This document shows, piece by piece, positions 8,210 through 63,811 of a DNA stretch of 64,000 bases; positions within the stretch are counted from its first letter, which is position 1; every line of letters begins with the position of its first letter. The position numbers were made by a program, and so were the translations under genes. Under the pieces are notes generated by a model that saw only the letters and a program-made list of their open reading frames with translations, was not told the DNA's origin and searched no databases. This stretch comes from Candidatus Riflebacteria bacterium HGW-Riflebacteria-1. GTDB taxonomy: Bacteria > Muiribacteriota > Ozemobacteria > Ozemobacterales > Ozemobacteraceae. The stretch covers positions 282,735 to 346,734 of the forward strand of contig PGYB01000001.1 in assembly GCA_002839445.1 (NCBI GenBank), given 5' to 3'.

Positions 8210-8227
8210 CGTAATCGTAATCGATTA
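8210..8227. repeat. CGTAATCGTAATCGATTA palindromic-unit motif (copy 1)
   Basis: Direct reading. The unit CGTAATCG is its own reverse complement's partner, CGATTACG. Confidence 0.6.
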
Positions 8228-8237
8228 TCTCTATCTT

Positions 8238-8250
8238 TCTCTCTCTCTCT
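8238..8250. repeat. (TC)6 dinucleotide microsatellite upstream of the SGNH/TPR gene
   Basis: tctctctctctct read directly in the 8146-8283 intergenic region. Confidence 0.6.
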
Positions 8251-8283
8251 GACCAGATTTAGAAAAAGGATTGACCCAGTTTT

Positions 8284-60962: not shown

Positions 60963-62090
60963 TTACTTGAGTAGATCGAGCGCAGTCATGGCGCAGCCTT
61001 TGTGCTTGTTAAGACCGGCTCGGCCAACAATTCTGAACGTCTTGCCCGGCCGGCCGCACGGGCAGTTACCCTCGATTATCGCCTTGTCAGTCGTCAGCAG
61101 CGCAATCGACGGATAACTCGAAAGATAAGGCGTCATAAGGTATAACAACCCCTCTTTGCCGTCGCCAACCGGCTTCAGCGTTTCGGGTTCGACAGTCAGC
61201 GCGCGCGCGTATATCGGCACGTGCAGACGCCCGGCTTCACAGTCAACATAAGGAATGCCATGCTCGACCATGCCGAAAAGATCGCGCAAATTATGGCGCG
61301 GTATGCCAAGCACCCGCTCGACGCGGTCTTTAAAGAAATCTTTGCTGACTTCCTGATCTTTGTGCATCTTCCAGCCGCCGCCGGTAATAATATACGAGTC
61401 CTTGCCAAGATTCAGCGTTATGCCGGCTTCTTCGAGCCGATTGCACACCTGCCAGAGATAAGCAGGAAACCCGAGAATCCGCACCGGTTCTGGCCGTTTG
61501 CCAAAGGCGATCAGCTTCTTAACCGTAGCATCAAGGTCGAATTCAAAATCGTTGATCGCTTCTTTCCAGCGAATCGCGTAATAAACCGAACGCCGGCCGG
61601 TCAGACCAGTCAGGCCCTTATCGGAAAACGCAGTACCAACGTTGCCGGCCACCTTGGGATCATAGGTGAAACACAGGTAATTCACCTTCTGCTGATGATT
61701 TACCATGCCCAGCGAGTCAAAAATATTGTTGAGAATCGTCATAATGCGCCGATATGAGCGGTTATCGAGAATAATCGCGCTCTTGCGACCGCCAGTTCCC
61801 GAAGATGTCAGCTCGATCTTGACCTGCCGTTCAGGCACCGAAGCCAGCCGAAACTCTTTAAAAATCGTCACCAGCAGCGGTGGAATCTCCTCAGGCGCAT
61901 ATTCCTGCGCAAAATCAGTCAGTCCGCTTTCGCGCAGAAAAGCCCGATAATCCGGGCATTTCGCAGCATGCCAGCGCAGCGCTTCGTTCATCGCCTGGTC
62001 GAACAGCTTGTCGGTCGTTTTGCTGTGCGCAAAGGCGCGGTTAATATCAAACAACTGGCCACAACGTTCAAAAGGTTTTGCTTCAGCCAA
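60963..62090 (-). CDS. LuxE-like acyl-protein synthetase
   Basis: ELTSSGTGGRKSAIILDNRSYRR and full-length LuxE-like pattern. TTG start with a GAGGAG RBS overlapping the upstream stop (TTGGCTGA). The track extension to 62138 was rejected. Confidence 0.7.
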   Translation of the reverse strand: MAEAKPFERCGQLFDINRAFAHSKTTDKLFDQAMNEALRWHAAKCPDYRAFLRESGLTDFAQEYAPEEIPPLLVTIFKEFRLASVPERQVKIELTSSGTGGRKSAIILDNRSYRRIMTILNNIFDSLGMVNHQQKVNYLCFTYDPKVAGNVGTAFSDKGLTGLTGRRSVYYAIRWKEAINDFEFDLDATVKKLIAFGKRPEPVRILGFPAYLWQVCNRLEEAGITLNLGKDSYIITGGGWKMHKDQEVSKDFFKDRVERVLGIPRHNLRDLFGMVEHGIPYVDCEAGRLHVPIYARALTVEPETLKPVGDGKEGLLYLMTPYLSSYPSIALLTTDKAIIEGNCPCGRPGKTFRIVGRAGLNKHKGCAMTALDLLK

Positions 62091-63267
62091 TTCTCCACTC
62101 CTCGTCAAAGTCAGGCTGGCAACGCACCAGCAGCTCATACCAGCACTTCATGAACGCATCAAGAAAGCGCCGGTTATTATCGACCAGATTCAGATCCATA
62201 AAATCCAGATTCTCAAATGATCGCGAAAACACCAGAAAATCTTCGCGCAAACCCTGGTCATTGATGCGCATGGCCGGGAAATAAGCGCACGGCAGAAACT
62301 TTGTGTCAAGTGCCAGGCGCTGCATCTCAGGCTTGAACGCGTTAACCAGTAATTCGATGTAGCGCATGCCCGATTTTGAAGCCGCCTCACAAAACCACAT
62401 CATCGCATTGTGAATATCGCCGCCATTATAGCGGTAACCGACCATGACACCGTTGCCATCGATACGATTGAAGTTAACAAAAAAATCGGCGCTGCCATCG
62501 CGGGCCGAAAACAGCATGTTCGGGTCAGTAAACGGAAAAAAAACCTTCTGCATCAGGTCTTTATCCTGATATTGGTAGAACTTCCGACTCACCTCAGCGA
62601 GATCCTCGAGCAGGTCAAACTCAACCATCGCGCCCATTTTGCGCGGATCACGTTCGTCAAGAATCACTGTATGTGGCTCTTCAAGGTTCAATTCTTCGCG
62701 CGCGATCTTGTAAAAATCATGCAGTTCCGGAATAAGCATCGGTGACTGCCGACGATATTTCATTGAGTTGGGGCTCAGATACACTTCGAGTCCGTGCGTC
62801 TCAAAAGATTCGATTTTGCGCACATTAGGGAAAATGCCCAGCGATATAAAGCCAAGATGTTCGAGCAATACCTGCGGCGCAAAGCTTACTGTGCGTGTCG
62901 TCGCGTAAACCACATCGCAGACACGGGTTTTCTCGGTCAAAAGTTTAAGACCATGCCGGGTCATGGTGCGCATCAGATCCTGGCCGCGAAACTCATTTAA
63001 AATAGCAGCGGCGTAGGTTTTTCCGATCTTGTTCACCGGGTCGACAGCAAAGATTACCGAACCGATGAGGCGCCCATCCACCTTTGCCAGAAGCCATAAA
63101 TAACCGGGGTCTTCTACCTTGCGCGCGATTATCGTCGGGTCAGAAACTTCAGGCAAAGGATATTTGCCTTTATAAACTGCAATGTAATGATCTATGATCG
63201 CCTGAATGTCATCTTTCGAGGCACTGACCATGTCTACGACTCTACGATCCTGCAGTTTAAGCTGCAT
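62083..63267 (-). CDS. tandem GNAT-like acyltransferase
   Basis: N-terminal half has a GNAT-like core (LWLLAKVDGRLIGSVIFAVDP...). The C-terminal half looks like a second, degenerate GNAT fold. First gene of the operon. Confidence 0.4.
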   Translation of the reverse strand: MQLKLQDRRVVDMVSASKDDIQAIIDHYIAVYKGKYPLPEVSDPTIIARKVEDPGYLWLLAKVDGRLIGSVIFAVDPVNKIGKTYAAAILNEFRGQDLMRTMTRHGLKLLTEKTRVCDVVYATTRTVSFAPQVLLEHLGFISLGIFPNVRKIESFETHGLEVYLSPNSMKYRRQSPMLIPELHDFYKIAREELNLEEPHTVILDERDPRKMGAMVEFDLLEDLAEVSRKFYQYQDKDLMQKVFFPFTDPNMLFSARDGSADFFVNFNRIDGNGVMVGYRYNGGDIHNAMMWFCEAASKSGMRYIELLVNAFKPEMQRLALDTKFLPCAYFPAMRINDQGLREDFLVFSRSFENLDFMDLNLVDNNRRFLDAFMKCWYELLVRCQPDFDEEWRIG

Positions 63268-63760
63268 CAGCAGTCCTTTCACGCCACAAATACTATGTTT
63301 ATAAGACACCGCAAGTATAACTGCAGACACTGTTTAAGTCAATAGTCGAAGCCGTCATCGCACGCTCCCGGAGACGCGTATGCTGATATACCAGATTGCT
63401 TCCCGACGAAACCCAGCCAGAATGATCTACAAATACTGCACCCCGATCGCACAGTATCCCCGGAACAAGCCACCCACAATGCTTGACGCGACATTTTCTC
63501 CTGTCATTTCCTTGCCGTCTGAGAAAATCCATGACTGAATGCGAAAAAATCGCTCAGAATACTTTCGCAGACAGGCAAAACACTCTGACATTCCCGCTAC
63601 CAGAACAGGTGACTGCAGTGAATGGCACTAAGCTAACGAAAGGTCTAAACGCAGATGTTTTACTCGTGCTCAGCGAAGCGGTGCTCGTGAGTCGATGCTC
63701 GCTGTATCCACAGGCGCCTCGACACTTGGCCATCCATGGCCTGCGTCGAACGAAGTGGTA

Positions 63761-63811
63761 TCGTAATCGAAAAATCAACAGCGCAAATCGATTACGATTA
63801 GGATTACGATC
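63761..63811. repeat. TCGTAATCGA ... CGATTACGATTAGGATTACGATC motif cluster (copy 4)
   Basis: Direct reading in the 480-bp region upstream of the lux-like operon. Confidence 0.6.

Follow-up and report, generated by a model that had tools for sequence, protein, structure and literature searches.

The 64,000-nucleotide window analysed here, from contig PGYB01000001.1 of Candidatus Riflebacteria bacterium HGW-Riflebacteria-1, carries short arrays of the hexamer CGATTA and related units at three intergenic sites (about 8.2, 58.3, and 63.8 kb) and a degenerate copy at 54.9 kb. These copies are probably the gene-less, decaying arms or hairpins of a mobile cassette that resembles the intervening sequences of 23S rRNA. 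In its full form the cassette, which is found in many bacteria, is an inverted pair of arrays, (TAATCN)n-loop-(NGATTA)n, that can fold into a long hairpin, and its loop holds a gene of the family PF05635 (23S-rRNA-intervening-sequence, S23p or Avd-like four-helix-bundle protein); it was defined here from the contigs L052, L123, L147, L148, and L158. A sequence-only reading of the same DNA had drawn attention to an 8-mer, CGATTACG/CGTAATCG, and proposed that it was either a binding site for a dimeric regulator or a short dispersed repeat family. The latter proposal is borne out beyond one genome, as the hexamer arrays occur in at least 120 metagenome contigs and form the arms of a hairpin cassette; the former finds little support, as discussed below. 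The copies in the window consist of the following parts.

8157-8174, minus strand: distal hexamer block of element A, CGAGAA CGAGCA CGAGAA (period 6 in Tandem Repeats Finder, TRF; (CGANNN)3 scan)
8175-8208, minus strand: A-type insert, 34 nt, GC-rich, between the CGAGNA and CGATTA blocks of element A
8209-8227, minus strand: (CGATTA)2.5 array of element A, ending in the 10-bp palindrome TAATCGATTA
54922-54969, plus strand: degenerate element B, GATGAC GATTAC GAC, an 18-nt A-type insert, and CGAGAA CGAACG AAA
58278-58293, plus strand: solitary (CGATTA)2.7 array, adjoining a hairpin at 58315-58339
63662-63770, plus strand: left arm of the composite hairpin, ACTCGTGCTCA...GGTGCTCGTG (TGCTCG-type units), core, spacer, and ATCGTAATCGA (63760-63770)
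63688-63747, minus strand: C-type insert, a GC-rich core of ~60 nt, GACGCAGGCCATGGATGGCCAAGTGTCGAGGCGCC...GACTCA, within the left arm
63771-63787, plus strand: hairpin loop of 17 nt, from the fold
63788-63824, plus strand: right arm of the hairpin, T followed by CGATTA CGATTA GGATTA CGATCA TGAGCA CGATTC, six in-phase hexamers

The 8-mer is a fragment of a tandem hexamer, (CGATTA)n, present in 2.5-3.7 units at the three intergenic sites (8209-8227, 58278-58293, and 63789-63811). A period of 6 is assigned by TRF to each of them, with 2.5 copies at 8209-8223, 2.7 at 58278-58293, and 3.7 at 63789-63810. The repeat unit has a fixed CGA/GAT triplet and three variable bases (CGATTA plus CGAGCA, CGATCA, and GGATTA), and each window copy, read CGATTA-wise, runs on in six-base phase into related units. 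As a general triplet signal, (CGANNN)3 had six matches in a scan of the window, tied with CAA, TCG, and TTG; a CGA-only rule is too loose by itself. Two independent public assemblies of this organism equal the window at every base over a shared 13 kb that includes three of the sites; the arrays are thus not an assembly artefact.

The sequences quoted in the sequence-only reading lie at all four of its sites as placed there, and its view that they exceed chance is confirmed: CGATTACG/CGTAATCG has 8 matches versus 1.32 expected, a count reached in none of 100 shuffles. This count is inflated because 8-mers overlap within one array, and other 8-mers of the window are enriched more strongly (e.g., TGCCGGTA, 16 versus 1.06), so that the signal lies in the same-unit, tandem, intergenic pattern and not in the raw 8-mer count. 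Tandems of two units, with one mismatch allowed, are found at six places versus 0.65 expected (maximum of three in 300 first-order Markov simulations of the window), and four of the six fall in the intergenic ~10% of the window, coding and intergenic status being taken from public gene calls. The 8-mer had been called palindromic; CGATTACG and CGTAATCG are in fact mutual reverse complements, neither of them a palindrome; genuine palindromic sequence is found in TAATCGATTA (8218-8227) and, as an inverted pair, in 63760-70 / 63788-98. Two further statements stand in part. Tandem or near-tandem repetition had been reported for four loci and is present at 8.2, 58.3, and 63.8 kb, the match at 54927 being one unit only; an exclusively intergenic location holds for the tandem copies, but not for a single 8-mer at 34606 inside the open reading frame (ORF) 34367-35071, which is a chance occurrence in a gene. 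A naive ORF map that marked 54930 and 63765/63795 as coding was rejected, since the ORFs concerned are spurious. A generic repeat finder applied to the whole window returned short chance families only; it is blind to these copies because they are too short and too interrupted.

The connection to a cassette is provided by public metagenomes. The 18-mer (CGATTA)3 occurs in at least 120 metagenome contigs with GC contents of 0.34-0.70, and a few tens of matches at most would be expected under uniform composition (an estimate, as the collection size is not stated). Among the contigs listed, the arrays often continue into units of other types, (CGAGCA)n, (CGACAA)n, or (CGATCA)n. Among the matches listed, a partner in inverted orientation, 10 nt or longer and within 200 nt, lies upstream of 29 of 101 arrays and downstream of two; by contig GC, an upstream partner accompanies 24 of 48 arrays at 0.56 or above and 0 of 30 below 0.47. 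The exact partner (TAATCG)2 is found in the same matches 17 times upstream and once downstream, with loops of 12-83 nt (14 cases) or ~390 nt (3 cases). The ~390-nt loops are PF05635 genes, arranged as (TAATCG)4, ATG...stop, and (CGATTA)4 in L052 and L123. Contigs of low GC (0.35-0.45) have conserved flanks of two kinds. In some (L027, L050, L058, L131, and others), (CGATTA)3 stands beside a conserved flank, ...gcattgactttgtgcgcgttacaaattgttttta, and in others (e.g., L043, L061, L069, and L133) it has the flanks ...caaatgtaat and ...gtaatcgcgattgcaatcgcgattacattt. These contigs seem to represent two other repeat families, possibly eukaryotic, and have no inverted hexamer partner.

In the full cassette the left array abuts the ATG of the PF05635 gene, and the right one either extends over the final codons of the gene or is read into an (Asp-X)n tail. 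As an independent test, three PF05635 genes were picked solely for their long contigs, with arrays disregarded; in every one of them (TAATCN)5-7 runs up to the ATG, and (GATTAN)3-5 begins within the last codons. The same arrangement leaves its traces in the protein database: over-long N-terminal gene calls take in the 5' arrays, which then read NRNRNR, IVIVIV, or LILILI, and in a second PF05635 subfamily, the one found in Riflebacteria, variable (Asp-X)n C-terminal tails are translated GAT-NNN arrays. Proteins 81-99% identical to the PF05635 protein of Riflebacteria have source names from Opitutales (Verrucomicrobiota), Planctomycetota, the sulfate reducers Desulfosarcina and Desulfonatronum, Kiritimatiellota, and others, which points to horizontal spread. 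Genes for the four-helix-bundle protein are numerous, with at least 8000 candidates in each of two profile searches.

Two observations on related sequences may be added here. The 81-99% identical proteins (P0216-P0335) differ chiefly in the length and sequence of the (Asp-X)n tail. In the Verrucomicrobiota-type contig L147 (11570-12230), a PDDEXK_3 (PF13366) gene lies between inverted tandem 7- to 9-mers of the CTCTGCG type; the layout is that of a gene in a tandem-repeat-armed hairpin, with both the gene and the unit other than PF05635 and the hexamer.

The window shares with the cassette its NGATTA-type tandem arrays (8209-8227, 58278-58293, and 63789-63824), built of the same units as the cassette arms. 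The inverted TAATCN/NGATTA order is found at 63.8 kb, across the 17-nt loop, and in the zero-loop palindrome at 8218-8227; at 58278-58293 and 54922-54969 there is no inverted partner. At 63.8 kb, the region 63.66-63.82 kb folds arm-loop-arm (-65.2 kcal/mol, z -2.56). Its inner stem is formed by ATCGTAATCGA (63760-70) and TCGATTACGAT (63788-98), and its outer stem by ACTCGTGCTCA (63662-72) and TGAGCACGA (63812-21). The left arm contains 28 nt identical to an arm in the metagenome contig L116, and the right arm resembles the (CGATTA)n(CGAGCA)n arms of many metagenome contigs. The element is located in an 875-bp divergent spacer between a GNAT-LuxE-LuxC operon and a gene of 684 amino acids that starts beyond the window. 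It is absent from relatives (Riflebacteria/Ozemobacteraceae metagenome-assembled genomes, found by their LuxE gene), which retain the promoter-like TTGACT-N17-TATACT beside the GNAT gene; this promoter lies at 63342-63314 (minus strand) in the window, ~420 bp downstream of the array, and is kept in three relatives. A 29-amino-acid ORF starting from an ATG inside the array was rejected as a gene, having no family match and no counterpart in public gene calls.

The 58.28 kb array marks the exact site at which sister Riflebacteria carry an intact PF05635 cassette. In the window it sits between the convergent genes for an M16 protein (55371-58199, plus strand) and a LuxC fusion (58358-60952, minus strand). 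The state of the corresponding LuxC/GIY-YIG spacer varies among the genomes compared: HGW-Riflebacteria-2 (L003) has a two-unit mini-array, GWC2_50_8 (L026) has GATTAC, a 95-nt insert, and CGCGCA CGAGCA CGAAAA, and L004, L164-166, and L167-168 have a PF05635 gene flanked by CGATCC/CGAGAC/CGATAG arrays. The M16 gene segment (55.4-58.2 kb) has a GC content of 0.55-0.61 versus 0.505 for the window and is absent from three relatives, in which the GIY-YIG gene directly follows LuxC; homology with them picks up again inside the 58.28 kb array. The segment is therefore an insertion in its own right, with one end at the array, and the earlier remark that motif copies bracket a compositionally odd segment at 54.9-58.3 kb was right in substance. 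On the far side of this segment, element B contains one CGATTACG and precedes the GIY-YIG gene (55035-55334) by ~60 nt, in DNA that is intergenic in public gene calls. Compared by eye, its block order is that of element A, with a shorter insert.

In L004 (13764-13790 / 14318-14343) and L167 (~340-360 / 915-940), a long direct duplication is seen at the insertion site, in which the last ~21 nt of LuxC and the following TCG-phase array are repeated beyond the four-helix-bundle gene. In the window, the M16-peptidase-like gene has its own terminator-like hairpin (segment 55335-58280). Upstream of element B there are two adjacent hairpins (54840-54920; attctgc...gcagaat and atcctgcg...cgcaggat), and HGW-Riflebacteria-2 has a related hairpin at the equivalent place (L003 14280-14320).

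Element A follows the stop codon of DUF5989 (8143-8145), a gene of a carbamoyltransferase-SxtJ-DUF5989 operon, with its distal block starting 12 nt past the stop, and precedes the SGNH/TPR gene; all of these genes are on the plus strand. The SGNH/TPR protein has 100% identity to one of Candidatus Riflebacteria bacterium HGW-Riflebacteria-1. Its palindrome TAATCGATTA is the zero-loop junction of a TAATCG arm with a CGATTA arm. In four congeners arrays stand directly past the DUF5989 stop with differing unit mixes, and orthologous sites have (TGCTCG)4-5 where element A has its distal block. HGW-Riflebacteria-2 has (TGCTCG)4(TAATCG)2, GWC2_50_8 has (TGCTCG)5 and no TAATCG unit, and L163, an 80%-identical relative, has a GC insert with TCGTAA CCGTAA. 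Within the genus, the array stays at one position, but the kind of unit and the number of units change.

Several arrays are interrupted by GC-rich inserts, which lie between CGATTA and CGAGNA blocks (five copies in three genomes) and in five out of five cases directly follow ...TTACGAC or ...TTCGAC. The A-type insert is present in L163, missing at the clean (TGCTCG)4(TAATCG)2 junction of HGW-Riflebacteria-2, and found as a shortened copy at 54937-54954. The C-type core has 36 nt identical between the window at 63.7 kb and a non-orthologous site in GWC2_50_8 (L026, ~2900-2975), and is 94% identical in L115 (5806-5870), where it again interrupts a CGATTA/CGAGCA array. The 58.28 kb array resembles the empty form of the L026 site, with GATTAC joined to GAAAAG versus GATTAC, 95 nt, and GAAAAG. 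Judged from these sequences, the ~60-nt core may be a tiny mobile element with a target preference for ...TTACGAC. IS200/IS605-type miniature elements, which insert 3' of a fixed tetra- or pentanucleotide (TTAC-like), have subterminal hairpins, and make no target duplication, were considered for the inserts; for this comparison there is one filled/empty pair, no TnpA/TnpB gene was observed, and the small number of copies does not allow the ends to be defined. The consensus of the C-type core is GACGC[A/C]GGCCA.GGATGGCCAAGTGTCGAGGCGCC...GACTCA.

Taken as gene-less members or remnants of the cassette, the window copies comprise one short-loop hairpin (63.66-63.82 kb), the left arm of which is broken by a GC-rich insert of secondary origin, a solitary arm at each of 8.16-8.23 kb and 58.28 kb, and one degenerate copy (54.92 kb). 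By analogy, intergenic cassettes would act like the known rRNA intervening sequences and would be horizontally mobile. Upon transcription the arms could pair into double-stranded RNA cleavable by RNase III, and the insert would be insulated and tolerated because of this pairing; confidence in this step is well below that in the identity of the copies, which is itself judged only somewhat probable. Replication slippage would shift the number and type of units, and gene-less hairpins and solitary arms would represent decayed or non-autonomous copies. The influence of such copies on nearby transcripts would not exceed that of RNA hairpins in general, and they would not serve as sequence-specific operators.

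A number of points weigh against this identification. No PF05635 gene or remnant was detected in the window (tblastn, nothing better than E = 4), so the membership of the window copies is judged solely from their arms, and two of the copies (8.2 and 58.3 kb) are without an inverted partner. The cassettes of Riflebacteria are built of CGATCC/CGAGAC units and not of CGATTA; their gene is also flanked by direct repeats of TCG-phase arrays, and L004 and L167 have a second copy of the 3' end of LuxC, features that go beyond a simple inverted-arm model. Only 2 of the 120 array-selected contigs listed hold a PF05635 gene, a lower bound, since jackhmmer with a truncated 89-amino-acid query may miss divergent members. 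Most arrays are gene-less, and it is possible that the gene makes use of arrays that are older than the cassette or independent of it. The ~30 low-GC (CGATTA)3 contigs without a hairpin may be unrelated. The 8.2 kb array is kept at one site across species with ~77-80% protein identity and could have a host function. Finally, transcription, RNase III cutting, and transposition of the elements are predictions by analogy.

The regulatory alternative, in which the arrays are operators of a dimeric or oligomeric transcription factor co-regulating the SGNH/TPR gene, the lux-like operon, and their neighbours, would agree with the enrichment and intergenic location of the motif, the 10-bp palindrome at 8218-8227, and the inverted pair at 63760-98. 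This, the dimeric-regulator idea of the sequence-only reading, is nevertheless very improbable. In 330 kb of orthologous LuxE loci of the relatives the 8-mer occurs six times and never in tandem, which is chance level, and at the 8.2 kb site, the position of which is kept, CGAGCA units take the place of CGATTA units or occur among them, in varying number. The 63.8 kb element is missing where the promoter is kept, and its distance from that promoter in the window is no operator distance; conservation of the motif upstream of orthologues was likewise not found. The 58.3 kb copy stands between convergent genes, and arrays in contigs of such widely differing GC are unlike a lineage-specific regulon. 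Tandem repeats in intergenic DNA, with unit numbers that differ between species, also recall simple-sequence contingency loci, in which hexamer slippage would switch adjacent genes (phase variation), and the heptamers of the Coxiella intervening sequence vary between strains (PMC4990558). Here 2.5-3.7 units are too few for frequent slippage, the two independent assemblies agree with the window at three sites, and the tracts lie outside promoter spacers and reading frames, which leaves phase variation with hardly any probability.

A host-domesticated RNA element deserves more weight, although we regard it as rather unlikely. A (UCGNNN)n/(CGANNN)n transcript might be bound by a multimeric protein, or a hairpin might act in mRNA processing or stability; the triplet is fixed every 6 nt with the other three bases free, and the arrays follow stop codons directly, in one orientation at two loci, and persist across congeners. 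Candidate binders are a ring protein of the TRAP type and the four-helix-bundle protein of the cassette, a pentamer: the passage on S23p in PMC4990558, which cites Lin et al. 2006, gives it as a toroidal homopentamer. Against this stand the loss of arrays, their reduction to two units, or their replacement among close relatives, the lack of an Rfam family match, and the absence of a PF05635 protein from the window. The arrays might instead be a hot spot or footprint of insertion, i.e., target sites (or duplicated targets) of other mobile DNA such as the 60-95-nt GC-rich inserts, the M16 segment, and the four-helix-bundle gene, and would then not belong to one cassette. Five inserts in three genomes come right after ...TTACGAC between CGATTA and CGAGNA blocks, the 58.28 kb array looks like an empty L026 site, the M16 insertion stops at this array, and in L004 and L167 the 3' end of LuxC occurs twice. 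The inverted pairing and the overlap with PF05635 gene ends in unrelated phyla are left unexplained, however, and as a complete account insertion preference is improbable; as a secondary property it is compatible with the cassette explanation.

Among known systems, the rRNA intervening sequence with an S23p gene comes closest. Apart from the Coxiella paper (PMC4990558), no account of the present architecture came up in the literature searched by repeat string and family name. The 23S intervening sequence of Coxiella is a horizontally acquired stem-loop with an S23p ORF, excised by RNase III, in which two to three tandem GACAGAT heptamers precede the ATG in numbers that vary among strains (PMC4990558). 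The elements described here share with the 23S rRNA intervening sequences of Coxiella, Leptospira, and others an inverted-termini stem-loop enclosing a PF05635 gene, tandem repeats of variable copy number before the ATG, and a sporadic, horizontal distribution (PMC4990558). Unlike them, they are intergenic and not in helix 25 or 45, both arms are wholly hexamer arrays, and the window copies have no ORF; RNase III excision is a feature of the 23S intervening sequences, whereas for the present elements folding potential alone was computed. Because they have neither the rRNA location nor an ORF, the window copies are not filed as 23S intervening sequences.

Repetitive extragenic palindromes (REP), bacterial interspersed mosaic elements (BIME), and palindromes similar to miniature inverted-repeat transposable elements (MITE) are likewise short, dispersed, intergenic, hairpin-forming, often gene-less, and variably present in close relatives. 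They differ in having a unique palindrome in place of tandem-hexamer arms; no partner of the REP-associated tyrosine transposase (RAYT) or other transposase type and no clear target-site duplication accompany the present elements, and the associated gene encodes a four-helix-bundle protein without a known catalytic role. The short tandemly repeated repetitive (STRR) sequences of cyanobacteria, reportedly treated by Mazel et al. in 1990, are said to be short tandem intergenic repeats in several unit families with no known function. Their period is 7 and their lineage another one, in contrast to the period of 6 here, and we know of no reported link between STRR sequences and inverted pairing or PF05635 genes. 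The accessory protein Avd of diversity-generating retroelements (DGR) belongs to PF05635, the family of the gene in the full-length cassettes. Unlike in DGR, no reverse transcriptase and no template/variable repeat pair lie near the cassettes, and the duplicated host segment is limited to the ~21 nt of the LuxC 3' end (L004 and L167).

More tentatively, short tandem-repeat arms could be the common mark of a pan-bacterial, undescribed class of small, horizontally moving hairpin cassettes, a broader proposal that we consider possible but doubtful. CGA/GAT+NNN hexamers flank PF05635 genes as CTCTGCG-type 7- to 9-mers flank PDDEXK_3 (L147), and in such a class the rRNA intervening sequences would be merely the special case noticed first. 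Hairpins without a gene and solitary arms, such as those of the window, would be common members of the class that are non-autonomous or have decayed, the 60-95-nt GC-rich insert would be a secondary parasite landing at the CGATTA/CGAGCA junction, and the predicted four-helix-bundle pentamer may recognise the repeat arms.

Under the cassette interpretation, an apparent regulatory motif becomes a marker of selfish or neutral DNA, which keeps a spurious regulon from being annotated in a candidate phylum of which little is known. It also suggests a larger family, most of it intergenic, of which the rRNA intervening sequences are members. If genes for the four-helix-bundle protein indeed always lie between self-complementary tandem-repeat arms, and given that proteins more than 80% identical have source names from several phyla, the movement of the cassette and the binding of arms by the protein become concrete questions. 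The gene-less arms of the window are of interest for the family to which they point; they show no sign of specific regulation.

Scans for other features returned little. With Rfam gathering thresholds the window gave no matches and no rRNA, a permissive Rfam scan of two loci gave two sub-threshold snoRNA matches and no credible family, and no tRNA genes were found in the window. Downstream of element A, a 109-amino-acid minus-strand ORF (7872-8201) was considered as a gene and rejected, the plus strand there encoding SxtJ and DUF5989. Arrays after the DUF5989 stop (window 8146-8174, L160 2888-2930, and L162 2651-2700; 15, 3, and 12 nt from the stop) share a reading frame in which read-through would yield (Arg-Ala/Ser/Asn)n, and this shared frame may reflect descent only. 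Between the 8.2 kb array and the SGNH/TPR gene lies a CT-rich tract, tctctatctttctctctctctctg (8228-8250), and L163 has a similar but shorter one.

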